The notes: a model not told the origin generated them from the sequence alone. A stretch of DNA of 64,000 bases from Candidatus Marinacidobacterales bacterium (GCA_965237955.1 OZ250169.1:5824001-5888000); one strand, 5' to 3'; counted from the first letter of the stretch, positions 11,101 through 56,064 are shown. Numbers and translations: made by a program.

Positions 11101-13115
11101 TGGTCCGTGTGGGTGGAGCGGGGTGCGCTCAATCCAGTCGTGCAAGCGGGCAGGTTGGAGCTCGTGGCCGTGGGCACAACGGCGGCGTCTATCAGCAGTT
11201 CGCCACCGGCGGTGCGGGCTCGACGATTACGATCGATGGTTTCTGGGGAAGTGATCCAACGGTTGCCAATGCGCAATGGGCCGAGGTGCTCGTGATCGAT
11301 GGCACCCGAACGCCGACGAGCGGTCAGGACCTCAATGCCGGCCAACCCGACGTCGTTCTGATCCACAAAAACGATACTTGGATATCGCCCGGCGGTTGGT
11401 CGGCTCCAATGCCTCAGGGAAGCTTCACCGCGTCCGGCGACGTGGCAACGATCGTTCTCAAGAGCGGAAATCTCCTTTCCGTGAGCTCGGGAACGTTCTA
11501 TGACGACATCGTCGTTCGCGGCGCAGGCGGAGCTCCCCCCGGCAACCGGACGCCCACGGCACGCGCGACGGGGAATCCGTCCACGGGAACGGCGCCGCTT
11601 ACCGTCAGCTTCGATGCCAGCGCGTCGAGCGATCCCGATGCCGACACCCTCTCGTTCGCATGGGAGCTTGGAGACGGTGCGACAGCGTCGGGGCCTCTCG
11701 CCTCGCACACGTATACGGTTGCGGGGAGCTTCACTGCATCGGTCACGGTGAGCGACGGCCGCGGCGGAGAGGATACAGCGAATGTGTCGGTCACCGTCAG
11801 CGGTGCGAGTCCGCCTCCGGGTGGAGTTTCATGGGACCCGCGGCTTTCCACGCTCGGTCTCGAAGTCATCGAGGCGGACGTGCCGCCGGGCACGTGGTAT
11901 TGGAAGCTGACGACGGCGGTCTTCGAAAGCGACGGCGAGATCCTTCCACCCCCCGGTGGTGGAAGCGAATCGCACGGCACTCACGCGATCTACGTCAAGG
12001 CGCTCAATCCGGACGGCTCGCCGATCGAGAACCAGGAGGCGTTGGTATCGTGGCCGCGCGAGGACCCGACGCAACAATCGTCGATACGCACGAAGGCGGC
12101 CATCGACGATTTCTGGGGCGATTTTCCCATGGCGGGCGGATGGTGTCCTTTCTTTCCCGACGGGCCGCGCGGTCCCTATGGTGCGCGGGTCGCACCGGTC
12201 ACGGACGTCGCGAGCGACGAGGTTTGGGGCATGGGCATGCCGTGCAACCGCCACGTCAGCTACCGGCTGACGTGGAAATGGTCGCAGAAGGATTCAGGCC
12301 AGAGCAAGCTGAGCATCCATGGAGGCTTCGGCGGTCCACTGTCAATGCAGTTCGTCGACCGCGCCAAGCCGCGCATCGTGAAGATTCTCGACTCGTTCTC
12401 TGCGGCGCCCGAGATACGAAGACTCTCGCCCGAGACCGAGATCATCGGGCGCGCGTTTCTTCCAACGCAGCCGATGGACGGCGATCCCATACAGCGTGCA
12501 CGCGAGTGGTGGGATTCCCAGAGGGCCCTCATCCTCCAGTATCCGGACATCGACTATTGGGAGGCCTATAACGAGCCGATCATCCAAACCCCCGAGCTCA
12601 TGGCGTGGTATGCGGCCTTCGAGAGCGAGCGCGTGCGTCTTCTCGCCGAACACGGGCTCCGTGCCTGCATCGGGAACTTCTCGGTCGGAAATCCCGACCT
12701 GCCGCTGTGGCCACACTTTTATCCGGCATTCGATGCGGCGAAAGCACATGGCGGCATCCTCGGACTCCATGAGTACGGGACTCCGATGCAGCAACACTTC
12801 GACGAGTCCGTAGGCGAGGGCTGGTTCACCGGCCGGTACCGCAAACTCTATCGCCAGTACCTCATCCCGGCGGACAAGGACATTCCGCTCGCGATTACCG
12901 AGACCGGAGTCGACGTCGTAGCGCCGGTGGGGTGGAAGCACCATTTCACCGAGGAGGAGTACCTCGATCAGCTGATGTGGTACGACAGCATATTGCTCGA
13001 AGACGACTACGTTCTCGGGGCGACGATCTTCGCGCTCGAGATCCCCGGGTGGTGGAGCTTCGACATCGCTCCCATCGTCGATCGACGCGCCGATTACGTT
13101 GCGGTAGATCCTTAA
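8140..13115 (+). CDS. Large secreted multidomain protein: GH-A-like barrel, carboxypeptidase-regulatory domains, 2x (CBM-like + PKD), second GH-A-like barrel; frameshift near 11173
   Basis: Signal peptide; WNEP...THPY...ITE; two PKD repeats (PL.VSFD.S.SSD.D...W.FGDG); YNEP...LHEY...ITETG. ORFs 8140..11295 and 11100..13115 join at the repeated GHNGGVYQQF motif. Confidence 0.75.
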
Positions 13116-13159
13116 AGCCTCTGCGGTGATCTTTTCTTTTCGGAGAGTACTATAATAAA

Positions 13160-14251
13160 GTGGTGAGCGCGTTCACCGAGGTCGTTCCGACGCAATACTG
13201 GCACGAGCTGCCGGATGGTCGCATTCAATGCGACGTTTGCCCCCGGTTTTGCAAGCTGAAAGAGGGCCAACGGGGCATGTGCTTCGTGCGCGGGCGCGAG
13301 GAGGACGCGGTCGTCTTGACCACCTACGGCCGCTCGAGCGGGTTCTGCATCGACCCGATCGAGAAAAAGCCGCTCAATCACTTCTATCCCGGAAGCGCGG
13401 TGCTATCGTTCGGCACCGCGGGCTGCAATCTCGCTTGTCAGTTCTGCCAGAACTGGGACATCAGCAAATCACGCGAGGTGAATCGGCTCTCGGATAGCGC
13501 GACGCCGGACGCGATTGCGCGCGCGGCGGAAGAGCTCGGGTGCAAGAGCGTGGCGTTCACTTACAACGATCCGGTGATCTTCATGGAGTACGCCGTCGAC
13601 GTCGCCGATGCGTGCCGCGCGCGCGGCGTGAACGCGGTTGCGGTCACCGCGGGCTACATCGCCGAGGCTCCCCGCGCCGAGTTTTACCGGCACCTGGACG
13701 CGGCGAACATCGACCTCAAAGCATTCTCCGAGCGCTTCTACAAGAATGTATGTGCCGCGAGCCTCGCGCCGGTCCTCGAGACGCTCGAGTACGTGAAGCA
13801 CGAGACCAACGTGTGGTTCGAGCTCACGACACTCCTGATTCCGGGCGAGAACGATTCGGAGGAAGAGCTCGACGCGATGACCCAATGGGTGGTGTCACAC
13901 CTCGGACCGGACGTGCCGATGCACTTCACTGCGTTTCATCCCGATTGGAAAATGCTCGACAAACCAGCGACGCCACCGGCGACTCTGTTTCGCGCGCGCA
14001 CCATCGCTCTCGGGAACGGTGTCCGCTACGCCTACACCGGAAACGTCCACGACAAATCCGGGGGAAGCACGTACTGCCACGAGTGTGGTGAGGTACTCAT
14101 CGGGCGAGATTGGTACGAGCTGTCGGATTGGAACCTGATTGATGAAGGACGGTGCCGATTCTGCCGGTCGTCGTGTCCGGGTGTCTTCGAGGCCGAGCCC
14201 GGCGATTGGGGGGCGAAGCGTTTGCCGGTGCGGATGAAGGATTTTGCGTAG
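13160..14251 (+). CDS. amrS: AmmeMemoRadiSam system radical SAM enzyme
   Basis: CDVCPRFC, DPIEKKPL.HF.PG, CNLACQFCQNWDIS, FTYNDP. Confidence 0.9.
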   Translation: MVSAFTEVVPTQYWHELPDGRIQCDVCPRFCKLKEGQRGMCFVRGREEDAVVLTTYGRSSGFCIDPIEKKPLNHFYPGSAVLSFGTAGCNLACQFCQNWDISKSREVNRLSDSATPDAIARAAEELGCKSVAFTYNDPVIFMEYAVDVADACRARGVNAVAVTAGYIAEAPRAEFYRHLDAANIDLKAFSERFYKNVCAASLAPVLETLEYVKHETNVWFELTTLLIPGENDSEEELDAMTQWVVSHLGPDVPMHFTAFHPDWKMLDKPATPPATLFRARTIALGNGVRYAYTGNVHDKSGGSTYCHECGEVLIGRDWYELSDWNLIDEGRCRFCRSSCPGVFEAEPGDWGAKRLPVRMKDFA

Positions 14252-14287
14252 ATCTGCCGCGAGCCGTTTACTAGTGAGAGGATCTCA

Positions 14288-15394
14288 ATGACAAAGAAAC
14301 TCAGCCGACGTGAATTCGTGAAGACCGGTGCGGCCGCTGCAGGCCTGTCGGCGGCTCCGACGGTGTTGACCCCCCAGACGGGGAAGCCGGTCGTGATCTC
14401 GTCGAGCAACGGGTACCGCTACAAGAACGGCGGCACCGAGACATGCGTCGAGCGAGCGTTCCGGATGATTACCGAGGGTGAAGACGTTCTCGAAAGCTTG
14501 GTTGCGGGCGTGAATATCTTGGAGCTGGATCCCGCCGATACCAGCGTTGGATACGGTGGGCTCCCGAACGCAGACGGAGTGGTGCAGCTCGATTCGTGCT
14601 GCATGCATGGCCCCAAGAAGCGGGCCGGCGGAGTCGCAGCTCTCGAGGGTGTCCGCACGCCGTCTCTCGTGGCCCACGCGGTGATGGAGATGACCGACCA
14701 CCACCTGTTGGTCGGTGCGGGGGCGCAGACGTTCGCGCGGAACATGGGGTTCGAGATCCAAGACGACTTGAATACCGAAACGTCGCGCGAGCGCTGGCTC
14801 GACTGGAAGCGACGCATCGACCCGGGCCACTATCTCAATCCGCAGGAGCGAGCGGAGGCTGGCTACAAGGCGGGTCTTCAGATGGTGCGTGAAGGCCTCA
14901 TCGACGAAGACCATTTCTACGGCACCATCAACTGCAACGGCATCGCCCCGAACGGTGACGTTTGCGGAGTGACGACCACCAGCGGTATGGCGTTCAAGAT
15001 TCCGGGACGGGTCGGCGACTCTCCGATCCTCGGAGCCGGGCTCTATGTGGACGGCGACGTCGGCGCGGCGGGGTCGACGGGACGCGGCGAGGCGAATCTC
15101 TACGGGTTGTGCTCGTTCGTCATCGTAGAAGAAATGCGTCGCGGCGCCCACCCGAAGGATGCTGGCATGGAAGCGCTCCGTCGGGCGAAGGAGGCTACGG
15201 TGGAAAGGCGGCTTTTGAACGACCGCGGCCTCCCGAATTTCGATCTGACGTTCTACGCGCTCAACAAGAAGGGCGAATTCGCAGGAGTCGACTTCTACGC
15301 GTCCGAGACATCCACATACGCCGTGTGCACCGAGAACGGACCGGAGCTACTACCCATAGAGCCGCTGTTCGAGGAAAGCGCCACCGACGACTAG
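14288..15394 (+). CDS. Tat-exported N(4)-(beta-N-acetylglucosaminyl)-L-asparaginase / asparaginase-2 family
   Basis: SRREFVK Tat motif, SVGYGGLPN, GTI nucleophile, TTTSG..FKIPGRVGDSP. Confidence 0.88.
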   Translation: MTKKLSRREFVKTGAAAAGLSAAPTVLTPQTGKPVVISSSNGYRYKNGGTETCVERAFRMITEGEDVLESLVAGVNILELDPADTSVGYGGLPNADGVVQLDSCCMHGPKKRAGGVAALEGVRTPSLVAHAVMEMTDHHLLVGAGAQTFARNMGFEIQDDLNTETSRERWLDWKRRIDPGHYLNPQERAEAGYKAGLQMVREGLIDEDHFYGTINCNGIAPNGDVCGVTTTSGMAFKIPGRVGDSPILGAGLYVDGDVGAAGSTGRGEANLYGLCSFVIVEEMRRGAHPKDAGMEALRRAKEATVERRLLNDRGLPNFDLTFYALNKKGEFAGVDFYASETSTYAVCTENGPELLPIEPLFEESATDD

Positions 15395-15470
15395 AACGGC
15401 AATCGCGCGAACAACTTGCGGGGATCGTTCCTCCGGAATAAGATGACTTTTTTCGAGCAGGGAAGCTTCG

Positions 15471-16823
15471 TTGAGAGTTCTGGGAATCACCGCAGGTGCG
15501 GCCAACATGTACTGCGGGAGCTGTCTTCGCGACAACGCTCTTGCGGCCGAGCTGAGACGTCAGGGTCACGACGTGACCCTCGTCCCCGTCTACACCCCGA
15601 CCCGCACCGACGAGCCGAACGTCAGTGAAGAGCGCGTCCTCTACGGAGGCGTGAACGTCTACCTGCAACAGGTCGTTCCGCTATTCCGGCGGACTCCCGA
15701 GTTCGTGGATCGGGTCTTCGACTCGAAGTGGGTCATGAAGCTCTTGAGCCGACTGCCGGTCTCGACCGACCCAGCGGAGCTCGGCGATTTGACAGTCTCG
15801 ACTCTCAAAGGCGAAAGCGGTTTCCAACGGAAAGAAGTCAACAAGCTCACTGCTTGGCTGACCGCCCAACCCCGGCCCGACGTCGTCGTCCTTCCGAACT
15901 CGTTGATGATTGGCCTGGCGCGGCCGCTAGCGCGGGCACTGCAAGTGCCCATCGCGTGCACTCTTCAAGGAGAAGATTTGTTTCTGGATGGGCTCTCCGA
16001 AGCGCACCGGGCCGAAGCCATCAGCCTCATTCGCGACCAAGTGCAGTTTGTCGACGGCTTTATGGCGGTGAGCGACTACTACGCCGGGTTCATGGCGAAT
16101 CTTCTCTCGATCCCGGCGGAGAAGATGGCGATAGTGCCACTCGGGATCAATTTCGACGGCTACGCGCCGAGCACGCCGCCGAGTACGTCGACGGACACGC
16201 CGCTCAAGATCGGCTATTTGGCTCGAATCGCTCCCGAAAAAGGTCTGCACAACCTCGTCGAGGCGTATCGGCTGTTGCGCGAGCGCGACGACGTGCCCCC
16301 GACTCGGTTGGAAGTGGCCGGCTATCTGGGGCGTGAGCACCGTGGCTACCTGGCAAAACTCAGCGCCGAGATCGCACGCTACGGTCTGGCGGACGAGTTT
16401 CATTACCACGGTGTTTTGGACCGACGCGAAAAGATCGAATTTCTCCAGTCTCTATCGCTGGTGTCGGTTCCGACGGACTACGAGGAGCCCAAGGGAATCT
16501 TTGTGCTCGAGGCCATGGCTGCCGGCGTTCCGGTAGTGCAGCCACGACGTGGCGCATTTCCGGAGCTTCTCGGGCGAACCGGCGGTGGCAAGCTCGTCGA
16601 GGCCGGCAACAGTGGGGAGCTCGCCGAGGCTTTGGCCTCTCTCGTGCGGGACGCCGGCGAGCGACGCGAGCTCGGACGCCGAGCGGCGGAAGGCGTCCGG
16701 CTTCACTACCCGGTAGAGATGATGGCGCGGCGATCCATCGCTGCATTCGAGAAACTGGTCGAGCGGGAGCGGGTCGGCCCTGTCGGTAAAGTAGAGGGCG
16801 TTGCGACGGGAGTGACGATTTGA
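15471..16823 (+). CDS. Glycosyltransferase family 4
   Basis: GT-B fold, ARIAPEKG, EPKGIFVLEAMAAGVPVV; unusual N-terminal MYCGSCLRDN CxxC. Confidence 0.88.
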   Translation: MRVLGITAGAANMYCGSCLRDNALAAELRRQGHDVTLVPVYTPTRTDEPNVSEERVLYGGVNVYLQQVVPLFRRTPEFVDRVFDSKWVMKLLSRLPVSTDPAELGDLTVSTLKGESGFQRKEVNKLTAWLTAQPRPDVVVLPNSLMIGLARPLARALQVPIACTLQGEDLFLDGLSEAHRAEAISLIRDQVQFVDGFMAVSDYYAGFMANLLSIPAEKMAIVPLGINFDGYAPSTPPSTSTDTPLKIGYLARIAPEKGLHNLVEAYRLLRERDDVPPTRLEVAGYLGREHRGYLAKLSAEIARYGLADEFHYHGVLDRREKIEFLQSLSLVSVPTDYEEPKGIFVLEAMAAGVPVVQPRRGAFPELLGRTGGGKLVEAGNSGELAEALASLVRDAGERRELGRRAAEGVRLHYPVEMMARRSIAAFEKLVERERVGPVGKVEGVATGVTI

Positions 16824-17923
16824 ACGAGTTGAGCACGAGTCTCGAAGAAAGAAAGTCGGGAGCCAAAGCGGCGCTCGACGATCACGTTCGTGAGATCGTC
16901 CAATGGCACTTCGACCCGGACAAAGGAACGCCTTTTTGGCTCGAGTACGCCGAGAAACTGAACTTTGATCCACGTAAAGACATCCACAGTTTCGAAGACC
17001 TGCGCAAGTTCCCCCTGTTCGAGGACGAGTGGCTGCGTGGAGGACCCGTGAGGCGATGGGTACCGAATCTGTACCACGATCGCCCCATCCATGTGTTCGA
17101 GACGGGAGGCACGACCGGGATTCCGAAGAGCCGGATCGCCATCGAAGATTTCCGAATCGACTATGAGCTCTTCAGCGACACGTTGCCCGATGAGTACTTC
17201 CCCAAAGGCTCGAACTGGCTCATGCTCGGCCCCAGCGGGCCGCGCCGCCTCCGTCTCGCGGTGGAGCATCTCGCTCAGTATCGTGGAGGCATTTGCTTTT
17301 GCCTCGACCTCGATCCGCGATGGGTGATCAAGCTCATCAACAAAGGTTGGAAGGAACACCTCGAAGCGTACAAGAATCATGTGATCGACCAGGCGATGAC
17401 TCTCTTGAGCGCCGGACACGACCTCAAAGTTCTATTCACAACACCCAAGCTGCTCGAAGCGTTCGCGCTCCGCCTCGAAGACGAAGGCTCGAGCCTGAAA
17501 GAAGCAGGATTTACAGGGGTCTTCTCCGGCGGTACCGAGTTCACGCCGCAGTGGACAAGGTTTGCGGTGGAGGAGCTTCTCGACGGTGTCTACATCACGC
17601 CGACTTACGGAAACACGCTCATGGGGCTCGCGGCCTCGCGACCGGTGGGCCCGGACGACGGCTACAAGATCACGTACTACGCCCCGCAGCCGCGGGCGGT
17701 CGTCGAAGTCGTCGACCCCGATGACGGCACCACCGTTGTCGACTACGGCGAGACCGGCCGGGTCCGTCTCACCACCTTGACGAAAGAGTTCTTCGTCCCC
17801 GGTTTTCTCGAACGGGACGAGGGTGAGCGCGAGCCTCCCTACGATGCTTACCCGTGGGATGGAGTCAGCGGCGTGAGACCCTTCCAGAAATTCGCGTCGA
17901 CCACGACGGTGGGCGTCTACTAG
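16820..17923 (+). CDS. EhpF-like adenylate-forming (ANL-like) enzyme
   Basis: WHFDPDKGTPFWL...NFDP, P-loop VFETGGTTGIPK, YGNT, FLERD; pattern recalled from Pantoea EhpF. Confidence 0.75.
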   Translation: MNELSTSLEERKSGAKAALDDHVREIVQWHFDPDKGTPFWLEYAEKLNFDPRKDIHSFEDLRKFPLFEDEWLRGGPVRRWVPNLYHDRPIHVFETGGTTGIPKSRIAIEDFRIDYELFSDTLPDEYFPKGSNWLMLGPSGPRRLRLAVEHLAQYRGGICFCLDLDPRWVIKLINKGWKEHLEAYKNHVIDQAMTLLSAGHDLKVLFTTPKLLEAFALRLEDEGSSLKEAGFTGVFSGGTEFTPQWTRFAVEELLDGVYITPTYGNTLMGLAASRPVGPDDGYKITYYAPQPRAVVEVVDPDDGTTVVDYGETGRVRLTTLTKEFFVPGFLERDEGEREPPYDAYPWDGVSGVRPFQKFASTTTVGVY

Positions 17924-17956
17924 TAATTAGTAATTAGTGTTAGCGGCGATCCGACC

Positions 17957-19384
17957 ATGATCAACATTCCGGTTCTGCGGTGGGGAAGTCCTTACGAAAG
18001 CCTCGAGACCGACACCGTCGTTCACTTCGATACCGGCGAGGAGCTCGCCAAAGTCGGTCTCGCGAACGGCGGGCTCATCCAGCGAGACATGCGCAAAGCG
18101 CAGCGGGCGCGCGACTTGCTGCGTGAGATCCCACCCGTCGAGTTGATCGGCATGGTGACGAAGGCCGCGGACCTCTACATGGAGGCCGAGTTGCCGCTTG
18201 GTGATGGGACGCAGGGACCTGACGATTTCCTCAAGTATCAATCCGCGACGACAGGGCTTCCCGAGCACATGTGCCGGGCGAACATGGAGAAAAACCATTT
18301 CGTTCTGACTCGCATGGACGAAGTGCTCGACGCCCTCACCCGCGGATTGGATCTGTCCATCCTGAGTCAGGGGCACGGTGTCGAAGAACGCGGAGTGCGA
18401 CTCAGCTTCCAGGCGCAAACACCGGTGTTGGGGCTGGTGCTACCGTCGAATTCTCCCGGTGTCCACACGTTGTGGATGCCCGTGATCCCGCTCCAAGTCG
18501 GGCTCGTGTTCAAACCCGGACCCCAAGAGCCATGGACGCCCTACCGCATGGCGGGCGCGTTTTTCGAGGCGGGCGTTCCGCGAGAGACGATCTCCATCTA
18601 TCCGGGACTCGGCGACATCGGCGCCGCGGTGCTCGCGAGATGTCCCCGTAGTATGATTTTCGGCGGTACCCCGACCGTCGAGCGCTACAAGAACGATCCG
18701 CGAGTGCAGGTACACGGCCCGGGCTTCAGCAAGATCCTTCTCGGCGACGATGTTGTCGACGATTGGGAGAAATACCTCGACGTGATGGTCGACAGTGTTC
18801 TCGTCAACAGCGGACGAAGCTGCATCAACTGCTCCGGAATCTGGGCATCGCGGAACACCCGAGAGATCGCGGAAGCCATCGCCGAGCGTATCGGTCCGAC
18901 CGCGCCGCTGCCGCCGGAGAATCCGGAAAGCGCTCTCGCCGCATTCACCGTTCCGGGAGTCGCCGAAACCATCTCCGCTGAGATCGACCGCCATCTCGAG
19001 GAGGCGGGCACGGAAGAGGTGACGAAAAAATATCGCGGAGAAGACTCCGAGCGCCTCGTACCCCGAGATCGGTGTGACTACCTTCGTCCCACCGTGATCC
19101 ATTGTGAGTCGGCCGATCAATGGCTCGCGAACAAGGAGTACATGTTCCCCTTTGTTTCAGTGGTCGAGTGCGAGCAGAAAAACATGATCCGTGAGATCGG
19201 ACCGACACTCGTCGGTAGCGCTATCACCTTCGATGAGTCGTTCCGTCAACAACTCCTCGACGCCGTTCACATCGACCGACTGAACGTCGGACCAGTGCCG
19301 ACGATCCGGCTCAACTGGCTGCAACCGCACGAGGGCAACATCATCGACTTCCTGTTCCGCGCTCGCGCCTACCAGGAGGCGTGA
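17957..19384 (+). CDS. Aldehyde dehydrogenase / acyl-reductase (EhpG/LuxC-like)
   Basis: VLPSNSPGVH, KPGPQEPWTP, HGPGFSK, catalytic NSGRSCINCS, EYMFPF. Confidence 0.8.
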   Translation: MINIPVLRWGSPYESLETDTVVHFDTGEELAKVGLANGGLIQRDMRKAQRARDLLREIPPVELIGMVTKAADLYMEAELPLGDGTQGPDDFLKYQSATTGLPEHMCRANMEKNHFVLTRMDEVLDALTRGLDLSILSQGHGVEERGVRLSFQAQTPVLGLVLPSNSPGVHTLWMPVIPLQVGLVFKPGPQEPWTPYRMAGAFFEAGVPRETISIYPGLGDIGAAVLARCPRSMIFGGTPTVERYKNDPRVQVHGPGFSKILLGDDVVDDWEKYLDVMVDSVLVNSGRSCINCSGIWASRNTREIAEAIAERIGPTAPLPPENPESALAAFTVPGVAETISAEIDRHLEEAGTEEVTKKYRGEDSERLVPRDRCDYLRPTVIHCESADQWLANKEYMFPFVSVVECEQKNMIREIGPTLVGSAITFDESFRQQLLDAVHIDRLNVGPVPTIRLNWLQPHEGNIIDFLFRARAYQEA

Positions 19385-20061
19385 TCGAAGGCGACTCAGT
19401 GCTCGAAGCCCACGATCTCTTCAAAGAATTCCCGACACCTATTGGTGCTCTTCGGATCCTGAAGGGCATCTCCCTCGACCTTGCTCCGGGCGACGCCGTT
19501 TCGATCATGGGCCCGTCCGGCGGCGGGAAGAGCACGCTCCTGTTTCTTCTCGGCGCGCTCGACACGCCGACTTCGGGGAGCATCGAACTCGACGGGCGAA
19601 ACCCGTTCGAGCTCTCGGAGCCGGAGCTCGCGGAGTTTCGCAATGCACAAGTCGGCTTCGTTTTTCAGGATCACTGCCTGTTGCCGCAATGCACCGTCCT
19701 CGAGAACGTGCTCGCCCCGACGCTCGTCGCCCCTCCAGGCGAATACCGGAAGCGGGCGGAAGAGCTTCTAGACCAAGTCGGCCTGCGTGAGCGGATCACC
19801 CACCGTCCCGCCGAGCTCTCCGGTGGCGAAAAGCAACGCGTTGCGATCGCGCGCGCGCTGATTCGTCAACCCCAATTGTTACTCTGCGACGAACCGACAG
19901 GGAACCTGGACGGCGACAACGCGCAGACGGTGACATCGCTGTTGCTGGATCTGCAAGAACGCGAAAAGAGGATCCTGGTTGTCGTCACCCACAGCCCCGA
20001 GCTAGCGGATCGCTTCCCTAAGCGAATGGAGCTGAAAAACGGGACGCTTCGAGAGCGATGA
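19381..20061 (+). CDS. ABC transporter ATP-binding protein (LolD/MacB-like)
   Basis: GPSGGGKS, LSGGEKQRVAIARAL, DEPTGNLD, VTH. Confidence 0.93.
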   Translation: MIEGDSVLEAHDLFKEFPTPIGALRILKGISLDLAPGDAVSIMGPSGGGKSTLLFLLGALDTPTSGSIELDGRNPFELSEPELAEFRNAQVGFVFQDHCLLPQCTVLENVLAPTLVAPPGEYRKRAEELLDQVGLRERITHRPAELSGGEKQRVAIARALIRQPQLLLCDEPTGNLDGDNAQTVTSLLLDLQEREKRILVVVTHSPELADRFPKRMELKNGTLRER

Positions 20062-23000
20062 AGCTTCGCGAGCTCGTCCACAGAAACCTCGTCTACTTCT
20101 GGCGGACGAATCTGGCGGTTTTCGGCGGGGTGGCGGTCGCGGTCGGGGTCCTTACCGGAGCGCTCTTCGTTGGGGATTCGGTTCGGGGGAGTCTTCGCGA
20201 GCTGTTCTTGTCGCGACTCGGCAACACAGAAACCGTCATCATCGCCAACAACTTCCTTCGGGAAGAGCTTGCGAGCGACATCGGGGCGGACCCTGTACGT
20301 ACTGTCCCGCTCATAGCGTTCGTCGGAATGGTGACGCACGAGCCCAGTGGTCGACGAAGGGCGGATGTCCAAGTGTACGGCGTCGACGAGCGTTTTTGGT
20401 CGTTTCACGATGTTGGCAATCGTGAGCTTTCCGGGCGTGATGCGCTCGTGACCTCGAGTCTTCGAGATGAGCTCGGAAGCCGCGGCGGAGATGTACTGTT
20501 ACTTCGCGTCGAGCGTCCTTCCGCCGTCGCACGTGGATCGCTCCATGGTCTCAAGGAAGACAACGGCCGGACGCTGAGACTCACGGTGCGCGACGAGGCA
20601 GCGCCCGAGCTCTCGATGTATCCACAACAGGATGCGGTGCGGGCGGTGTTCGTGCCGCTCGCGCGGCTCCAGCGGGATCTCGGTCAGGAGGACAAGGTCA
20701 ATAAAATTCTCGTCGGAGGCGATCTCGATAGCGCGGAGGTTCGGGAGCGGTTGCGAACGAGCGCCAAGCTTTCGGATCTCGGCGTGCGTGTTCGTGTGCT
20801 CGAAGCGCGTGGGGCGCTCTCCGTCGAGTCGGACGCGCTGATGTTGAGTGAGCCTATCGTCGCTGCTGCTCGCGCGGAGGCAGCGGCGCGTAGCATGGCG
20901 TCGACCTCCATTTTCACCTATCTCGCGAACACGCTCGAGGTGGGTGACAGTACAGTGCCCTATTCGCTCGTGACCGCACTCGACGACAAAGCCTACACGT
21001 CACTCCTCGAAGGTGAGCGACCTATGTCGCCGAGCCTCGTTCTGAACTCGTGGGCGGCGTCGGACTTGGGCGCGGAGCGGGGTGATTCGCTCACGATGGA
21101 GTTTTACGTCTGGCGGAACGAGGGGCAGATCGAAACCCACACCGCGGATTTCGTCGTCGATGGCGTGATCGAGATGGAAGGGTGGGGGGCCGATCGTGAT
21201 GTCGCGCCCGAGTTCCCAGGCATCTCGGCGACCGAGGATCTCGCCGATTGGGACCCGCCATTTCCGATCGATTTGCGGCGTGTGCGTGACAAAGACGAAG
21301 ACTACTGGGATGAGCATCGGACGACGCCGAAGGCATTCATCCGCCTTGCTCGGGGTCAACGTCTTTGGCCGGTGCAGCAGGGGACACTGACGTCGTTTCG
21401 GCTCGAGAGCGATCAACCGACGGAAGACGTTTTTGATATCGAATCCGGATTGCGAGCGCGGCTAGACCCGCTCGACATGGGATTTTCCGTCATCCCCGCG
21501 CGCGTGGAAGGCGTTGCCGCTTCACGTGGGGCCACAGACTTCGGCGAATATTTTGTCTACTTCAGCTACTTTCTCGTCGTAGCCGCACTCCTTCTGACCG
21601 GGTTGTTCTTCAAGCTCGGTGTCGAGCAGCGCCTTCGCGAGATCGGGACGCTACGCGCAGTCGGTTTTTCCGTCGCCACCATCCGACGCGTTTTTTGGCT
21701 CGAGGGTGCGGCGCTGTCCGTCGCTGGAGGTATCGTTGGGATCGGCATTGCCTTGGGCTACGCGTGGATCGTCATGTACGGTCTTCGTACCTGGTGGGTC
21801 GACGCCGTCGGAACGCGTTTGCTCACACTTCACGTGAGCACGACGTCGCTCGTCATCGGCTTGGTGGGTGGCGTCACGGTGGCGAGTGTTTCGATCGCCC
21901 TGACGCTCCGGCACTTGGAAAAGATTCCACCCCGTCGCTTGCTCTCCGGAGACGTCGGACGGGAAACGTCGTCAACTGTCAGAAAGACCTCACGCAGGGC
22001 GGGGGTGACGGCATTGGTGACGCTCGCTCTTGGCATTGCGCTCGTTGCAGCCGCGAGCACCGACATCGGCATCATCAGTCAAGTGTTCGGGTTCTTTGGC
22101 GCGGGGAACCTGTTTCTGGTCTCGGCGCTCCTGTTCCAGTGGGTATGGTTGCGATCCGACTCGCAACGCGCGGTCGCCGGACACTTTGGCCAGGGTTTGG
22201 TGGCGATCTCACGCCTCGGTTTTCGGAACGCAACCTATCGGCCGGGTAGAAGCCTGGTCGCCATTGCCCTCATCGCCTTCGCGAGCTTCACCATCGTCGC
22301 CATGGACGCGTTTCGAAAAAACGATGACGCCATCGAGTTGGTGCGCAACTCGGGAAGCGGGGGCTATCCGCTCGTGGCCGAATCGCTGCTGCCACTCCAC
22401 TGGGATCCGAACACCGAAGAAGGCCGGGACGCGGCCAACTTGCCGTACCCGGGTGACCCGGATGCCGTCGACATGCGCATCGAGACGTTTCGTTTGCGAC
22501 CCGGTGATGACGCGAGCTGTCTCAATCTCTACCGTCCGCAGAACCCGAGAGTGCTCGCCGTCAGCGCGGAGTTCATTCACGAGAGCCGCTTCCGGTTCAA
22601 CGCCTCTCTCGCATCGACACCTGAGGAAGAGGAGAACCCATGGCTCTTGCTCAACGAGAGCTTCTCCGATGGTGCCGTTCCTGTTATCGGCGACGCCAAC
22701 TCGATGACCTATGTCCTCCATCTCGGACTCGGCGACGATTTCCTGTTGCCGCGCGTCGGAGAGACACCGTTGCGGCTGCGTCTGGTAGCGACTCTCGCGG
22801 ACAGCATCTTCCAAGGTGAGTTGTTGATGTCGGAAGATCGCTTTCTCACTCAGTTTCCGCGGGTCGACGGGTTTCGCTTCCTTCTCGTGGACACGCCAGA
22901 ACCGGAAGCCGCTTTGAATCTTCTCGAGCAACGTCTTTCGGATTTCGGCCTGGACGTGCAGTCGACGTCTCAGAAGCTCGCGGGATTTCACCGCGTGGAG

Positions 23001-23384
23001 AACACGTACCTGTCCACGTTCCAGACGCTCGGCGGGCTCGGATTGGTGTTGGGAACGTTCGGGCTCGCGGCGGTATTGCTGCGGAACGTTCTCGAGCGTC
23101 GCCGGGAGCTCGCGCTGTTGAGAGCGGTAGGGTATCGACACAAAGACTTTTCCCTCATGATCGCTGCCGAGAACAGCCTGCTATTGCTTCTGGGGCTCGT
23201 GACCGGAGGCGTCGCTGCGGTAGTGGCGATTGCACCGGCTCTTTGGGCGCGAGGCGGCAGTTTCGGGGGCGGCTCGCTCGGCCTCCTGCTGCTCGCCGTC
23301 GTTGTGAGCGGGTTTCTCTCATCCGTCCTTGCCGTGTCGGCAGTGTCGCGAGCACCGCTTCTCTCGAGCCTCAAAGCCGAATGA
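20058..23384 (+). CDS. ABC transporter permease, duplicated FtsX/MacB type
   Basis: Two EQRLREIGTLRAVG / ERRRELALLRAVG modules with large periplasmic domains. Confidence 0.9.
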   Translation: MKLRELVHRNLVYFWRTNLAVFGGVAVAVGVLTGALFVGDSVRGSLRELFLSRLGNTETVIIANNFLREELASDIGADPVRTVPLIAFVGMVTHEPSGRRRADVQVYGVDERFWSFHDVGNRELSGRDALVTSSLRDELGSRGGDVLLLRVERPSAVARGSLHGLKEDNGRTLRLTVRDEAAPELSMYPQQDAVRAVFVPLARLQRDLGQEDKVNKILVGGDLDSAEVRERLRTSAKLSDLGVRVRVLEARGALSVESDALMLSEPIVAAARAEAAARSMASTSIFTYLANTLEVGDSTVPYSLVTALDDKAYTSLLEGERPMSPSLVLNSWAASDLGAERGDSLTMEFYVWRNEGQIETHTADFVVDGVIEMEGWGADRDVAPEFPGISATEDLADWDPPFPIDLRRVRDKDEDYWDEHRTTPKAFIRLARGQRLWPVQQGTLTSFRLESDQPTEDVFDIESGLRARLDPLDMGFSVIPARVEGVAASRGATDFGEYFVYFSYFLVVAALLLTGLFFKLGVEQRLREIGTLRAVGFSVATIRRVFWLEGAALSVAGGIVGIGIALGYAWIVMYGLRTWWVDAVGTRLLTLHVSTTSLVIGLVGGVTVASVSIALTLRHLEKIPPRRLLSGDVGRETSSTVRKTSRRAGVTALVTLALGIALVAAASTDIGIISQVFGFFGAGNLFLVSALLFQWVWLRSDSQRAVAGHFGQGLVAISRLGFRNATYRPGRSLVAIALIAFASFTIVAMDAFRKNDDAIELVRNSGSGGYPLVAESLLPLHWDPNTEEGRDAANLPYPGDPDAVDMRIETFRLRPGDDASCLNLYRPQNPRVLAVSAEFIHESRFRFNASLASTPEEEENPWLLLNESFSDGAVPVIGDANSMTYVLHLGLGDDFLLPRVGETPLRLRLVATLADSIFQGELLMSEDRFLTQFPRVDGFRFLLVDTPEPEAALNLLEQRLSDFGLDVQSTSQKLAGFHRVENTYLSTFQTLGGLGLVLGTFGLAAVLLRNVLERRRELALLRAVGYRHKDFSLMIAAENSLLLLLGLVTGGVAAVVAIAPALWARGGSFGGGSLGLLLLAVVVSGFLSSVLAVSAVSRAPLLSSLKAE

Positions 23385-23550
23385 GTTGACGCTCCTCTCC
23401 GGGGACGCGACAATAACAGAAGGAATCCAGTTCCCACCAAATCCAGCTTCAAAGGACTCCGTTCTGACCGACTCTCACTCTTCCGACATCAGCGCCGAGC
23501 TGAAGGAATCGCTCCTGGAGGCTATCCAGGATTTCTTCGATGAGCGACTG

Positions 23551-23994
23551 ATGCCGCAGCGGAAACCCGGGGCCGCCTCGAAGGTGGAGCGCACTCGGGT
23601 CACGGACCGTCAGCTGCAGCTCGCGACCGCGGTTTTGCTGCTCGAAGTCGCTCGATGTGACTTCGACTTGAGGGCGGACGAGCTCAATGCCGTGTCTCGT
23701 GGCGTGCGTGAGGTTCTCGGGCTGACGGAAGACGAAGCCGTCGCGGTCGTTCGTTTCGCCGAAGAGGAAGTGCGTCAATCGAAACGTCTCTACCAGTTCA
23801 CCGATCTCATCGACAAGAACTACTCGCCCGACCAGAAGAAACTCGTCGTCCAGTACCTGTGGCAGGTCGCGTTCGCGGATGCTCAGCTGGTCGCGACCGA
23901 AGAGTACATCGTGCGCAAGATCGCGGATTTATTGCACGTGTCGCTCGCTGATTTTCTCGACGCCAAAATCAACGCCCGCGATTCCTTTCGCTAG
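23551..23994 (+). CDS. TerB family protein (start uncertain, possibly slightly upstream)
   Basis: [23 protein letters not shown]...[12 protein letters not shown]. Confidence 0.8.
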
Positions 23995-24055
23995 TCTGAT
24001 TTCGCTTGCGCTCCGGCTAGATTCGCGCGACACTTCGTGGCAACGGAGGGTTTCG

Positions 24056-24706
24056 ATGTTCCTTGCCAACAAGAAGCTGGAGTTCCCGACCCAAGACGAA
24101 GCGCTCCCCGGCCGCACGGAGACGATGGAAGTTCCGGACGCCCATTTCGTCAACGGAAACCCGTTGACGCCCCCGTTTCCGGAAGGCATGCAGAGAGCGC
24201 TCTTCGGCCTCGGCTGCTTCTGGGGCGCCGAGAAGGCGTTTTGGGACCTCGACGGCGTATTCACCACCGCCGTGGGGTACGCGGGTGGCATCACCCCGAA
24301 TTCCACCTACCAGGAAGTGTGCACGGGGAGGACCGGCCACAACGAGGTGGTGCTCGTCGTGTTCGACCCGAAGGTCATCTCGTACGAAGAGCTTTTGAAG
24401 ACGTTTTGGGAAAGCCACGACCCGACACAAGGGATGCGCCAGGGCGGGGATACCGGAACGCAATATCGCTCCGGGATTTATACCTACGGTCCCGACCAGG
24501 CGAAAGCCGCGGAGGCGTCGTTGGAACGCTATCAGGAGAAATTGCGCGAGGCCGACTACGATCCGATTACTACCGAGATTGTGGACGCACCGGAGTTTTA
24601 TTACGCGGAGGAGTACCACCAGCAGTACTTGGAGAAGAATCCGGGAGGGTATTGCGGTTTGGGCGGTACTGGGGTTGCGTGTCCCATGAGCCTCGCTGTG
24701 GAGTAG
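24056..24706 (+). CDS. msrA: Peptide-methionine (S)-S-oxide reductase
   Basis: [40 protein letters not shown]; GGAGG RBS before ATG 24056. Confidence 0.95.
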
Positions 24707-24842
24707 GCCGCAGTACGTAATCAAAGGAGAGCGGCAGCACCGGGATCTTCACGAGTATTTTCGCTTCGCTGATATCCAGACGTGCCTGATCGGTCTTAGC
24801 GCCGAAGCTCTTGGTCCGACGTAACGCGTCCAAGTTTCCCAC

Positions 24843-26156
24843 TCAGTTCCTTTGTTGTGCCGATGATGCTTTTCGAATCAGCTCGGCCACGTCCGTCAGG
24901 CCTTGCTGCTCCGCGTAAGTCCTCAACCGGTTCGATTCTTTCTCATCGATCGTGGCGCCGCGGTCCAACAGGCTTTCGATGAGATCGGAAAAAGCACCCT
25001 CGGCAGCGACGATCAGCGGCGTGCGACCCTTGGCATCTTCGACGTTGACATCGGCGCCCTCGTCCGCGAGCCGTTCGACGAGCCGGGTACGCCCCTCTTC
25101 GGCTGCTTTGAAGAGCGCGCTCGCACCGTGTCCGTCGGTCGCGTCGACGGACGCACCTGATTTCAGAACGAGCTCGACGATCGCTTCGTGCCCACCGTGT
25201 GCGGCGGCGATGAGCGTGGTCGTGCCGTTCTCCGCTTTCGAGTCGACCGACGCGCCCCGCGACAACATCGCTCGGGCGAGCTCGACGTGACCGCCGGTAG
25301 CGGCAAGGATCAGCGCAGTGCGCCCAAGGCGGTCACATTCGTCGATCGCTTGGCCGTGGTCGAGCATGGTTTCGGCAAGATCGACATGTCCGTACATCGC
25401 GCTTCGAAGAAACGGACTGAGCCCGTGACGATCTTTTTGAAGTGCATCGGCCCCGGCGTTCAATAAAAGCTCGACCATCGCGCGATTACCAACCGACGCA
25501 GCCGTCATGAGTCCGGTGCTGCCATCTTCTCGCGCGGCGTTCGCATCAGCGCCGATGTCGAGGAGCCGCTGTGCCAGCTCTCGGTTCCCCGACTCGGCAG
25601 CGAGCATGAGAGACGTCGTTCCATCGGCGTCCTTGAGGTCGACCGGAACCCCGAGCTCCAACAGGGCGGACACGACGTCGTCGTGGCCGTCGACCACCCC
25701 AAGCGTCAAGACGGAATGGCCATCGTCGTTTCGTGCAGCTCTGTCGGCACCGGCTTCGATCAGAAAGCGAACCGCACCGACTTGTCCGTTCTGACTCGCC
25801 ACCATGACGGGCGTATTGGCTTTGCGGTCTTTGGCGTTGATGTCTCCACCTCGAGCCAAAAGCCGCTCCAAGACTTCGGTGTGTCCGGCGAAAGCGGCGG
25901 CACCGACCGGTGTCACCCCGAGCGGGTTCCGTGTGTTCGGCTGCGCGTCGGCGTCGAGAAGAAAATCGACGACCGCCGTGTGACCTTCTTGCGCCGCGAG
26001 CATGAGAGCGGTCGCGCCTTGTCGGCCCCGCTCCTCCACGAAACCACCTTCGTCGAGTCGCTTTTTCACCGCGGCCAGCTCACCCGCATAGGAAGCCTCG
26101 TGGAGGGTTGGCTCGCGCGAGCCACGCTTGAAAAACCTCAGAATCAGCACACACAT
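24843..26156 (-). CDS. Ankyrin repeat protein (~12 repeats)
   Basis: Repeated G.T.L..AA..GH...V..LL..GA.VN units. Confidence 0.92.
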   Translation of the reverse strand: MCVLILRFFKRGSREPTLHEASYAGELAAVKKRLDEGGFVEERGRQGATALMLAAQEGHTAVVDFLLDADAQPNTRNPLGVTPVGAAAFAGHTEVLERLLARGGDINAKDRKANTPVMVASQNGQVGAVRFLIEAGADRAARNDDGHSVLTLGVVDGHDDVVSALLELGVPVDLKDADGTTSLMLAAESGNRELAQRLLDIGADANAAREDGSTGLMTAASVGNRAMVELLLNAGADALQKDRHGLSPFLRSAMYGHVDLAETMLDHGQAIDECDRLGRTALILAATGGHVELARAMLSRGASVDSKAENGTTTLIAAAHGGHEAIVELVLKSGASVDATDGHGASALFKAAEEGRTRLVERLADEGADVNVEDAKGRTPLIVAAEGAFSDLIESLLDRGATIDEKESNRLRTYAEQQGLTDVAELIRKASSAQQRN

Positions 26157-33098: not shown

Positions 33099-34010
33099 TT
33101 AACGATTCTGGACGAACTGCCAGCCGAAGCGGCCTTTGATGCAGAGGTGTCCGTTCGTTACATCATGGTCCATGGGCGAGGTGACGCGGACGATCTCGTT
33201 GTCTTGGACTCGTAGCTCGAGATTGCAGCCGACGCCGCAGTACGGACAGACCGTGCGGGTCACGGATTGTTTCGATTCGTCCCAGGTGCCGGCCTCGCGG
33301 TGGTCGTACTCACTCTTGAACATGAGCGCGCCCGTGGGGCAGACCCCGATGCAGTTGCCGCAATAGACGCACGCCGAATCATCCAGGCGGGTGTCGAGCT
33401 CGGTGGAGATGCGCGCGTCGAACCCCCGGCCTGCCACCGCGATTGCGAACGAATTCTGGGCATCGACACCGCAGGCTTCGACGCACTTGTAGCAGAGGAT
33501 GCAGCGGCTGTAGTCGCGCACGTACATCTCGTCGTGGATCTTGACGGGCTGCGACACCGTTTCCGCGGTGGTGCCGTCGGTCGCGTGGTGGTGTCCCGCT
33601 CGGCGTCGGTCACGCGCGCCCGCTTCCGTCTCCGGCCCGGCCTTGCCGAATTTTTCCGGCTCGGCGCGGTAGAGCTTCATGAAGTCTTTGATGTCGTCGT
33701 CCGCGAGGGACATGTCGACCGAGGATGCGAGGAGCTCGAGAACCAGCTTCCGGCTATGGCGCACGCGCTCGCTATCCGTCTGAACCTTCATGCCCGGCTC
33801 GGCCATGCGCGAGCAAGCGGGCACGAGGGTGCGCGAGCCTTCGAGCTCGACCACACACACCCGGCACGCGTTCACCGGCGTGAGGTTCTCGAGGTAGCAG
33901 AGCGTCGGGGTCTCGACGCCCTTCTTGCGGCACGCGTCGAGGAGCGTCGCGCCTTCTTGGACGGAGACGTTGTCGCCGTCGATCGAAACTTCTACCGAGC
34001 GCTCGCTCAT
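33099..34010 (-). CDS. Formate dehydrogenase Fe-S subunit (NuoG/FdsA N-terminal part: 2Fe-2S, 2x4Fe-4S, Molybdop_Fe4S4)
   Basis: PTLCY..ACRVCVVE..AC, CILCYKCVEAC, CVYCGNCIGVCP, CPYCGVGC...LCIKGRFG. Confidence 0.88.
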   Translation of the reverse strand: MSERSVEVSIDGDNVSVQEGATLLDACRKKGVETPTLCYLENLTPVNACRVCVVELEGSRTLVPACSRMAEPGMKVQTDSERVRHSRKLVLELLASSVDMSLADDDIKDFMKLYRAEPEKFGKAGPETEAGARDRRRAGHHHATDGTTAETVSQPVKIHDEMYVRDYSRCILCYKCVEACGVDAQNSFAIAVAGRGFDARISTELDTRLDDSACVYCGNCIGVCPTGALMFKSEYDHREAGTWDESKQSVTRTVCPYCGVGCNLELRVQDNEIVRVTSPMDHDVTNGHLCIKGRFGWQFVQNR

Positions 34011-35870: not shown

Positions 35871-35880
35871 GAAGTAATCC

Positions 35881-40818: not shown

Positions 40819-41263
40819 GACCGCGAGATAAGAGGCGAACCTAGCGTCCCCACCGTCGTTATGTTGGCGGCCGTGGAACCTGGCCAGAAACCGGCGGAAG
40901 GCACGTTCGTAGGCCACCCACGCTGCGACCGCCGACCGTATGTGTAAATATATCTGACATTATTGACGGATACACGTAGTTTGTGTTACAGTTCAGACGT
41001 CCCTGAGAAGGTGCGGGAGCCCAGGGATGGCCCAGCAGCTGAAGGAGATCGGTAGTATTCTCCCACCCCTGGTGGATTTTTTTCCGAGAGCGTGGCACCA
41101 GGCGAGAAAGCGGCGGAGGGCACGCTCGTACGCCACCCGCACGGCGAAAGTCCGCCCAGGCTGCGGCCGCCGGCCGTAGGGTGTAAAAATATCTAACATT
41201 GTTGACGAGCATCCGATATCGTGTTACAGTACAGCGTCCCTGAGAAGGAGAGGGAGCCTAGGC

Positions 41264-41653
41264 ATGGCCGAGAAACTGAAGGATATCGGTAGTATTCTCC
41301 AGAAAGCGCGGACGTCACGCGGTTTCACTCAGGCTGAGATCGCACCTCAGCTCGGTGTCTCACGAGCCACCGTCGCCCAGATCGAGACAGGGCGGCGATC
41401 CTTGAAAGCTGAAGACCTGCGGCGGCTAGCTGCCTTCTACGGCTGCAGCCCCAGCGAGCTCCTGCCCCGGGCTACCAACGACGAGAAAGTGGATGGCCCT
41501 GCCGAGCTGTTCCGCTCCCATCCTGATCTCACCCCCTGGTGGATTTTTTTCCGAGAGCGTGGCACCAGGCGAGAAAGCGGCGGAGGGCACGCTCGTACGC
41601 CACCCGCACGGCGAAAGTCCGCCCAGGCTGCGGCCGCCGGCCGCAGGGTGTAA
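41264..41653 (+). pseudogene. Truncated copy of the XRE regulator (HTH only)
   Basis: First ~89 codons match 41731.., then run into the repeat junction. Confidence 0.75.
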
Positions 41654-41668
41654 AAATATCTAACATTG

Positions 41669-41697: not shown

Positions 41698-41730
41698 ACC
41701 GCGTCCCTGAGAAGGAGAGGGAGCCTAGGC

Positions 41731-46136: not shown

Positions 46137-46386
46137 CTAGTCGCCTAACGCGCCGCGGTAGACGTCTAGCGCCGCGGGACTCGTCGAACGGGCGCGGGTT
46201 GAAGCCTCCGGTCCACTCGAGGGAGCGTTGCGCGCTCTCGACGTGCGGCGTCGCGAGAACGCCCGGGTCAGCGGTCCGGCGGGTGCGGCGAAAACCTGCA
46301 GCCTTGGCAAGCTCGCCCAGGCGCTCAATGGTACCAGGGCCGAAAACGACCTTCGGCTTCGGGATGTACTCGAACGCCTCCACCAC
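46137..46386 (-). pseudogene. Iron-containing alcohol dehydrogenase N-terminal remnant
   Basis: FEYIPKPKVVFGPGTIERLGEL...ADPGV; ATG adjacent to the upstream stop; degenerates after ~60 codons. Confidence 0.65.
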
Positions 46387-55892: not shown

Positions 55893-56064
55893 TCAGCTTT
55901 CAGGCCAGATGCCGAGCTCGCGGTAATAGCGAACCGCGCCCGGATGAAATTCCACGCAGGTATCGCGAACGACGTTTTCGGGATTGATGGGTCATCTGAT
56001 AAACGAGCGCTCCGGTGGCAATGACCATCGCAACGATGGCTGACAGAAGAGGTTGATGTCGCAT
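55893..56064 (-). pseudogene. TAXI TRAP solute receptor with a large internal deletion
   Basis: Signal MRHQPLLSAIVAMVIATG joined to LVYQMT and to C-terminal FHPGAVRYYRELGIW. Confidence 0.7.

Follow-up and report, generated by a model that had tools for sequence, protein, structure and literature searches.

What is the purpose of an operon that joins an EhpF-like adenylating enzyme and an aldehyde dehydrogenase (ALDH)-fold partner to a glycosyltransferase and a very large ATP-binding cassette (ABC) permease, when no phenazine genes accompany it? The question is raised by positions 15471..23384 of a stretch of 64,000 nucleotides, here called the window, from a Candidatus Marinacidobacterales bacterium (GCA_965237955.1 OZ250169.1:5824001-5888000). 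Five genes are found there on the plus strand: a glycosyltransferase of family GT4 (450 residues, 15471..16823), a short adenylating enzyme of the EhpF/GriC type (367 residues, 16820..17923), an ALDH-fold reductase of the EhpG/GriD type (475 residues, 17957..19384), an ABC ATPase resembling LolD, YbbA and MacB (226 residues, PF00005, 19381..20061) and a type VII ABC permease of the FtsX family (1108 residues, 20058..23384). A preliminary description of the locus had noted five co-oriented genes with three joints overlapping by 4 bp, as the coordinates of the open reading frames (ORFs) bear out: the overlaps are TTGA, GTGA and ATGA, and a gap of 33 bp separates the EhpF-like gene from the ALDH-fold gene. 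It had also treated the five as a self-contained pathway. Instead they form, with near certainty, a single arm of a system that numbers about 15 genes, several other members of which lie 23-35 kb downstream in the window. Our preferred reading, to which we give slightly less than even weight, is that what has been kept here is the late arm of this set and that it serves exported beta-propeller proteins, an acid being reduced, a sugar added and the product delivered. The argument builds on what is observed: the identities of the genes, their co-occurrence, the loss of other genes and the intactness of the five frames.

The assignment of the second and third genes to an EhpF/EhpG-type pair, already made in the preliminary description, is upheld by profile hidden Markov models, phmmer, Foldseek and a direct comparison with EhpG. 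The EhpF-like protein matches EhpF of Pantoea agglomerans (D-alanylgriseoluteic acid; structures 3HGU, 3HGV and 3L2K) over its full length (3L2K, phmmer E 8e-44, about 30% identity). Its structural model, with a predicted local distance difference test score of 88, has EhpF chains as its five best Foldseek matches (template modelling (TM) scores 0.77-0.79), full-length PaaK-type ligases reaching at most 0.69 against 0.78 for EhpF. The C-terminal domain of the ANL superfamily is absent, no Pfam match to AMP-binding_C being found in the protein, and the chain ends, like EhpF, in GVY, with no cysteine near the C-terminus in an alignment of 33 sequences. The ALDH-fold protein (PF00171, E 8e-16) is 23% identical to Pantoea EhpG at E 6e-26, while the best solved ALDH is matched only at E 6e-10, and it has GPGxS, the catalytic cysteine and H458 (of a PHEG motif) in common with EhpG. 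The motifs H253-G-P-G-x-S-K and N284-x-G-R-x-C289 are invariant in 30 orthologues, so that the catalytic C289 is kept. His253 aligns with the general-base glutamate of the LECGGK motif, where EhpG has glutamine. Taken together, these likenesses make the two proteins probably a two-protein carboxylate reductase of the EhpF/EhpG (GriC/GriD) type.

The pair nevertheless differs from EhpF/EhpG in several respects. The motif GPH[IV][IV]G of EhpF proper is not present in the EhpF-like protein; where EhpF has GPHIVG, all 33 aligned members of its clade have GPRRLR. GPH-type motifs are also seen in the nine distant planctomycete EhpF homologues examined (31-35% identity in that alignment), and when 71 rows were placed in a quick maximum-likelihood tree, the GPRR proteins grouped in a single clade (35 rows, SH-aLRT 99) that excludes Pantoea EhpF and is far more conserved within itself. 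At least 8000 EhpF-like candidates were scored, all of which passed, the best 120 being 74-97% identical to the query; among named records, the closest relatives are from Acidobacteriota (Vicinamibacteria and 'Candidatus Marinacidobacterales', 81-89%). The GPRRLR position presumably lines the acid pocket, by analogy with other adenylating enzymes, and on that analogy the three invariant arginines would point to a strongly anionic substrate. The neighbours differ too: a methyltransferase, a major facilitator superfamily transporter and a protein like non-ribosomal peptide synthetases for EhpF/EhpG, and here a GT4, a type VII ABC system and propellers.

The EhpF/EhpG chemistry had been given as established. 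That is true only in part: the EhpF structure paper reportedly offers reductase chemistry as a proposal, and it is GriC/GriD that supply a tested precedent. The accompanying label 'LuxC-like' did not hold, neither Pfam LuxE nor Pfam LuxC being matched at E 0.01, although activation followed by reduction through a cysteine thioester would be a feature shared with LuxE/LuxC. LuxE carries an acylated cysteine near its C-terminus, whereas the EhpF-like protein, ending in GVY, has none there. EhpF-O are reported to convert a phenazine dicarboxylate to the antibiotic (PMC3175449). In the grixazone pathway of Streptomyces griseus, GriC adenylates and GriD reduces 3-amino-4-hydroxybenzoate, so that an AMP-binding protein and a reductase together yield an aryl aldehyde (PMC10179220). 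GriC/GriD are likened to the present pair by this description. Plasmid proteins annotated as 'arylcarboxylate reductase' match at 33-37%, and the homologue that was fetched has GPHIVG and falls outside the clade. Unlike in the grixazone case, genes for aminohydroxybenzoate synthesis are not among the recurring neighbours here.

Could the two genes simply tailor a phenazine, or be an ordinary PaaK ligase and an ordinary aldehyde dehydrogenase? EhpF is the closest solved structure and the genome has one PhzF-family gene, which is the case for such a reading; we regard it as scarcely credible. The absence of phenazine genes, first noted for the window, was borne out genome-wide with genuine Pantoea queries: PhzA/B, PhzD and PhzG gave no tblastn match at E 1e-3 anywhere in the genome, and the only homologues met in this search for a phenazine core were one unlinked 28% match each for PhzE and PhzF, the latter 3.3 Mb away. 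The profile PF03284 gave no match in this genome (0/1) or in 80 others (0/80), in searches run without a positive control. Scores on PaaK models, at 17-21 bits, fall far short of the cut-offs (646-700), and the C-terminal domain is lacking; ALDH models score at most 34 bits against cut-offs of 449-850; and both motif and clade differ from those of EhpF. An ordinary PaaK and an ordinary aldehyde dehydrogenase were rejected.

Some further homologues of the pair may be recorded here. Nine planctomycete loci (L125-L133) have distant GPH-type EhpF homologues. None of the six such genomes that were profiled has any other gene of the system, and these loci have the look of aryl-acid reductase or natural-product loci in their own right. 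A plasmid of Halalkalicoccus jeotgali (L202, 6962-9578) has an archaeal EhpF/EhpG-type pair, with the motif GANNAG, directly 3' of a sodium:solute symporter gene. One Chloracidobacterium bin has two EhpF-like genes (L037 and L077; 65% and 73% identical to the one in the window; motifs GGSTG and GGTTG), one beside GT4 and ABC genes and the other beside an ALDH-fold gene.

The first gene of the operon is a member of the retaining GT4 family, with Pfam matches above the cut-off (PF00534/PF13439), a predicted GT-B fold whose best Foldseek matches are MshA, GlgM and BshA, and invariant R252, K257 and E347. The arginine, the lysine and the E-x7-E pair, of which position 339 is E or D in most rows, are what we take to be the donor-binding residues. 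The unusual CxxC noted earlier is confirmed as MYCGSC at residues 13-18 of an N-terminal loop: M13, Y14, C15, G16 and C18 are invariant in 18/18 orthologues, as is C163, and MYCGxC occurs in one of the 40 GT-like ORFs examined, out of 41 in the genome. The CxxC, a conceivable metal or redox site, lies in a poorly predicted loop, residues 10-13 and 45-61 of the model being of low confidence.

For the ABC ATPase the best NCBIfam model is LolD, at 248 bits, below its cut-off of 308. The permease has two FtsX stretches and ten helices predicted from hydropathy, with extracytoplasmic domains between helices 1-2 (about 460 residues) and 7-8 (about 240 residues); FtsX-type 1+3 helix repeats, large periplasmic domains and a LolD/MacB-like ATPase place the transporter in the type VII ABC class of MacB, LolCDE and YbbP. 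Neither a MacA adaptor nor TolC was found among the recurring neighbours of EhpF-like genes, no genome-wide search for them having been made. YbbP is described as having the same 10-helix layout, and YbbAP as presenting cargo extracted from the membrane to a periplasmic partner (PMC12646458). The earlier statement that the 1108-residue permease exports the product was overstated, the YbbP-type layout being that of a class whose members act, together with a partner, on the periplasmic side. The likeness to YbbAP-TesA of Escherichia coli (ten helices, periplasmic domains between helices 1-2 and 7-8, a separate ATPase; PMC12646458) is topological only, since no YbbP chain is among the phmmer matches at E 1 for this 1108-residue permease. 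It differs also in that no TesA-type gene is among the recurring neighbours here, the propellers being the recurring exported partners.

It is the wider distribution of these genes that shows the operon to be part of something larger. Within 10 kb of 80 EhpF-like genes, many of them at loci that end at contig ends, ALDH-like genes were found at 67, PQQ-like propellers (named for pyrroloquinoline quinone, PQQ) at 42, GT4 at 29, iron-dependent alcohol dehydrogenase (Fe-ADH) at 26, ABC ATPase at 26, the permease at 24 and a HemN-like radical SAM gene at 20. The exact gene order of the window is complete in 9/80 loci, all from close relatives. In ten mapped genomes the recurring set comprises the propellers P730 and P485, the EhpF-like and ALDH-fold proteins, Fe-ADH, a third propeller (P370), the HemN-like radical SAM protein, a TonB-dependent receptor, a chorismate-lyase-fold protein, a PltA-like flavoenzyme, a sodium:solute symporter, GT4, a thioesterase, a small membrane protein, a PaaK-like ligase, the ABC ATPase and the permease; the TonB receptor, the chorismate-lyase-fold gene and the ligase are often absent from the locus, and others are missing from single maps. 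In most of these ten genomes, which span two phyla, the set of about 15 genes is one co-oriented operon, with P730 directly upstream of P485 in all ten and the TonB receptor inside the operon in four (G040, G089, G077 and G005). The PltA-like flavoenzyme matches PltA-type halogenases at E 3e-57 and has a WxWxIP motif, while the chorismate-lyase-fold protein has weak matches (2NWI, E 0.0013; PF01947, E 0.23 in 1/6). In G167, G173, G213 and G053 there are second, more distant HemN-like copies (40-43%), in G173 and G213 again adjoining a halogenase-like gene.

The GPRR clade is present in 26/110 other Acidobacteriota, one more having a 36% homologue, and in 21/111 Planctomycetota including the centre genome, 11 more having 31-39% homologues. 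Forty positive genomes (22/26 clade-carrying Acidobacteriota and 18/20 clade-carrying Planctomycetota other than the centre genome) were compared with 40 negatives (20/83 Acidobacteriota, 14/79 Planctomycetota and 6/11 with a distant homologue only). These were chosen from lists rather than at random and related genomes are not independent, and no p-value is used as evidence. Orthologues were found in positives and negatives as follows: GT4 40 vs 2, permease 40 vs 3, P485 39 vs 1, radical SAM 39 vs 0, halogenase-like 38 vs 1 (the single negative being G023, which is among the 40 negatives of every count) and chorismate-lyase-fold 20 vs 0. The TonB receptor is in 14/22 positive Acidobacteriota, 0/18 positive Planctomycetota and 0/40 negatives. 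A propeller pattern searched in the DNA, WPx[WF]RGP, gave 338 matches in positives and 95 in negatives (medians 7.5 vs 2), against 75 and 86 for reversed-pattern controls; in the present genome its 8/8 matches read WPxWRGP. The linkage of the five genes, surveyed over 80 loci and these 40 vs 40 genomes, is thus conserved. The enzyme types are known, and the set is widespread and undescribed in the literature searched, where no account of it was found; most subscription journals lay outside that search.

Several of the other members are present in the window. P485 (46387..47844, minus strand; PF13360), with many conserved His, Asp and Glu residues, is 54-60% identical to propellers beside EhpF-like genes elsewhere. 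P730 (47841..50033, minus strand) has an N-terminal hydrophobic leader and a WxxWRGP motif. A third propeller, P434 (51733..53037, plus strand), reads WPHWRGP and is 63% identical to one found 3' of the permease in another locus (L011). Beyond these are genes for uptake. A fused tripartite ATP-independent periplasmic (TRAP) permease (DctM, PF06808; 53974..55884, minus strand) is 65% identical to the gene next to P730 in G089, and in several Acidobacteriota, G089 and G043 among them, its orthologue is inside the operon or adjoins it. A TonB-dependent receptor (PF00593/PF07715; 56113..58242, minus strand) is the orthologue of the receptor inside complete operons. The propellers are not typical PQQ quinoproteins, scoring 29-45 bits on TIGR03075 against a cut-off of 480, and an Atlas search with P485 found only unnamed PQQ_2 clusters. 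Neither pqqC nor pqqE was found over the cut-off in this genome. As pqqC is found in only 3/40 positives (2/40 negatives) and not over the cut-off here, it is improbable that the propellers depend on PQQ made by the cell itself, which is disfavoured as substrate or cofactor; imported PQQ may still serve as either.

Other members have been lost. P485, an intact Fe-ADH and P370 stand in a row in 5/5 close relatives examined, whereas here the Fe-ADH is a stub of 59 residues (46207..46383, minus strand; 64% to the first 60 residues of a relative's intact gene) and P370 is at position 2517840, 3.3 Mb away. The break is not peculiar to this assembly, because in another study's contig the Fe-ADH flanks are joined with 514 letters in place of 148. 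The gene for the TRAP binding protein, which in G089 precedes the permease intact, is reduced to a remnant of 31 residues (55896..55988, minus strand; 84% identical to the C-terminal 31 residues of its G089 counterpart). With relatives' proteins as queries, no orthologues of the radical SAM protein (best 29-30%), the halogenase-like protein (partial, 32%) or the thioesterase (28%) were found in this genome. Nor were those of the chorismate-lyase-fold protein and the symporter, for which the queries were more distant and the chorismate-lyase profile had no positive control; a single-sequence tblastn for the chorismate-lyase-fold protein was likewise empty in this genome, one such query having matched 20/80 other genomes. 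A PaaK-like ligase (C1 6329079-6330367), 41-46% identical to the operon member elsewhere, is split by a frameshift in the assembly. The early arm is likewise missing or partial in other genomes that retain the reductase gene and propellers: G227 is without the radical SAM gene; G226 and G228 have radical SAM and thioesterase genes among transposase-like ORFs with no halogenase-like gene alongside (G229 and G230 have both); and G016, 45.6 kb of which lay outside the search, is without the radical SAM and halogenase-like genes, with its late arm and Fe-ADH kept. The system therefore splits, the early arm being lost repeatedly and the late arm staying with the propellers, as is to be expected if a precursor can be taken up.

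The losses could also be taken to mean that the five genes are themselves a relic, or that they detoxify environmental aromatic acids by reduction, glycosylation and efflux. The missing early arm, the Fe-ADH stub, the frameshifted ligase, the TRAP binding-protein remnant, the distant P370 and ten IS110 copies would all fit. We consider this very unlikely, because the five frames are intact and the propellers and the TonB receptor are intact with them. The genome is a single 8.13-Mb contig (completeness 98%, contamination 6.2%), and the operon is matched at about 98% identity by contigs of three further studies. The indels listed for these are confined to one of 7 nt at 17921, between genes, and another at 23541, beyond the operon; none is listed within the coding sequence of the five genes. 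The ratio dN/dS, measured against three relatives, is 0.04-0.16, a long-term measure as dS is near saturation. A scan of 13000-25000 for promoters and terminators gave counts at the level of shuffled sequence (1 vs 2.3 and 13 vs 10.7). A short TAGTAAT repeat lies at the EhpF-like stop codon (17921-17940), with one 7-nt unit fewer in the strains of the three other studies.

How the retained arm might act can be modelled on GriC/GriD and on ALDH chemistry. An anionic aromatic acid would be converted to its acyl-AMP on the EhpF-like protein, the acyl group would pass to Cys289 of the ALDH-fold protein, and the resulting thioester would be reduced with NAD(P)H to an aldehyde; hydrolysis back to the acid would be disfavoured because this protein has no general-base glutamate. 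Fe-ADH may then yield a benzyl alcohol in complete systems, its place here being taken by an unknown alcohol dehydrogenase or by none. GT4 would glycosylate the alcohol or a phenolic hydroxyl, and the type VII ABC system would deliver the product to the periplasmic propellers, as ligand or cofactor. The acid itself would be made by the early arm (the optional chorismate-lyase-fold protein, aryl-CoA ligase, PltA-like flavoenzyme, HemN-like radical SAM protein and thioesterase) and is probably a decorated hydroxybenzoate. This guess is based on the chorismate-lyase-fold gene, weak as that call is, on the aryl-CoA ligase, thioesterase and PltA-like enzyme, and on a planctomycete dibromo-anisic acid precedent; an aromatic hydroxy-acid substrate seems to us evenly poised between right and wrong. 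The present genome, without the early arm and Fe-ADH and with a TonB receptor and TRAP permease kept, would salvage the acid or a later intermediate. That the product serves the propellers we put at an even chance.

Much of the same evidence could describe a secreted secondary metabolite, a reading that carries the preliminary description over to the full operon. An aromatic aldehyde or alcohol bearing halogen or methyl groups would be exported after glycosylation, which would protect the producer, and the propellers would be tailoring or deglycosylating enzymes. The closest tested homologues, EhpF and the PltA-type halogenases, are natural-product enzymes. Chorismate-lyase-fold and halogenase-like genes are adjacent in seven genomes (G170, G187, G219, G185, G186, G125 and G043), recalling baaA/baaB, which are reported as adjacent chorismate-lyase-like and halogenase genes in a planctomycete (bioRxiv 10.1101/723874). 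The same source compares BaaB with Bmp5, and baaA/baaB are set beside the present system by description only. A recent preprint defines a Halo_AMP pseudoclass by a halogenase and an AMP-binding gene, frequently with PQQ-like, TonB, radical SAM, thioesterase and glycosyltransferase genes, in Acidobacteriota, Latescibacterota and Poribacteria, and reads these as natural-product clusters; PQQ-like, TonB and radical SAM genes near the halogenases are noted there and left unexplained (bioRxiv 10.64898/2026.08.03.742642). The pseudoclass probably captures some complete systems; the present genome, in which no halogenase-like gene was found, falls outside its rule. The reductase pair, the CxxC GT4, the permease and the co-occurrence are undescribed in the covered parts of the two papers. 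As a secreted metabolite the product appears to us rather unlikely. In the genome samples the system is mostly present as a single copy, with 53-76% identity across phyla, which is more like primary metabolism than an antibiotic cluster; between roughly one fifth and one quarter of the genomes sampled in two phyla have it, in highly conserved form; importers are in the operon; the late arm stays intact after loss of the synthesis arm; and a genome-wide propeller family tracks the system.

The transporter class raises another possibility, that GT4 joins a reduced aryl or acyl unit to a lipid or lipid-linked glycan, which the YbbP-like ABC system lifts from the inner membrane and which BamB-like propellers, as carriers or transferases, attach to the envelope or to exported proteins. 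ABC systems of type VII are described as drawing hydrophobic cargo out of the membrane (PMC12646458), and the permease has that layout; the best NCBIfam models are LolD (ATPase) and BamB (propellers), each scoring below its cut-off. However, no membrane helix is predicted in GT4, the enzymes that match its structure best use small soluble acceptors, and no acyltransferase, carrier protein or flippase is among the recurring genes. Decoration of the cell envelope is on this evidence a somewhat poorer candidate still than a secreted metabolite.

A number of observations weigh against the proposal that a retained late arm serves the propellers. Co-occurrence marks the genes as one system and gives no direction, so that the propellers could be pathway enzymes or assembly factors; the 80 genomes compared were, moreover, a chosen and partly related set. 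The permease and propellers also occur in three EhpF-negative genomes (G094, G122 and G129), in which the reductase was not found; the latter two have GT4 and the ABC ATPase as well. The chorismate-lyase-fold gene, a weak fold call, is in only 20/40 positives, and the TonB orthologue was found in none of the 18 positive Planctomycetota. The three invariant arginines suggest an acid more highly charged than plain 4-hydroxybenzoate. Finally, with Fe-ADH missing, the aryl-CoA ligase frameshifted and the TRAP binding-protein gene a remnant, the arm could be on its way out.

A bolder form of the same proposal, which we advance tentatively and hold to be less likely, is that a new vitamin-like cofactor, namely a reduced, glycosylated and probably halogenated or methylated aromatic, is made and delivered by the operon for the large family of 'empty' PQQ-like propellers with WPxWRGP of Planctomycetota, Acidobacteriota and Poribacteria, the present genome being a natural auxotroph that keeps only uptake, reduction, glycosylation and delivery. 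PQQ and mycofactocin follow a comparable logic, in which a small cofactor is synthesised or taken up, glycosylated in the case of mycofactocin, and delivered to paralogous apo-proteins. The enzyme set here is different, no precursor peptide or PqqE/MftC-type enzyme was seen in the operon, and pqqC is as rare among positives as stated above. If the cofactor proposal is true, the free acid would pass between species as a precursor. These phyla have many PQQ-like propellers, which are so far unexplained, most genomes that carry them being without pqqC, and a gene set that tracks them almost one-to-one offers a direct way to learn their ligand or function. In this lineage the natural loss of the early arm separates synthesis, as one half of the pathway, from maturation and delivery as the other. 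A reductase clade with a new arginine-rich motif would also be an addition to the few two-protein carboxylic acid reductases, enzymes of interest as biocatalysts.

The surroundings of the operon can be described briefly. It is flanked at 13160-15394 and 23329-24706 (plus strand) by genes for an AmmeMemoRadiSam radical SAM protein (above cut-off), a Tat-like asparaginase-2, TerB and MsrA. The upstream AmmeMemoRadiSam and asparaginase genes and the downstream TerB and MsrA genes were rejected as members, being at 7-10/80 loci, nearly all from close relatives; inserts seen only in Poribacteria (a thiamine pyrophosphate enzyme, creatininase, PhyH and an AAA ATPase) were rejected likewise. Further upstream, at 8140-13115 (plus strand), a large secreted-looking protein with carboxypeptidase-regulatory and PKD domains is split over two overlapping frames at about 11100-11295. 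On the minus strand at 33099-37284 are a molybdopterin oxidoreductase and Nuo51-like and Fe-S subunits resembling formate dehydrogenase, the flavin subunit apparently being two overlapping ORFs. Genes for inositol monophosphatase, myo-inositol-1-phosphate synthase and a fused nucleotidyltransferase/CDP-alcohol phosphotransferase (39940-46127, plus strand) abut the Fe-ADH break and recall di-myo-inositol-phosphate-type solute synthesis; contigs of two other studies skip 43222-44483. At the far end of the window, tandem IS110-family transposase genes of 425 residues are found at 58710-59987, 60444-61721 and 61985-63262 (plus strand), with a fourth starting at the window end; their printed ends are identical, and the element has 10 copies at 90% identity or more in the genome.

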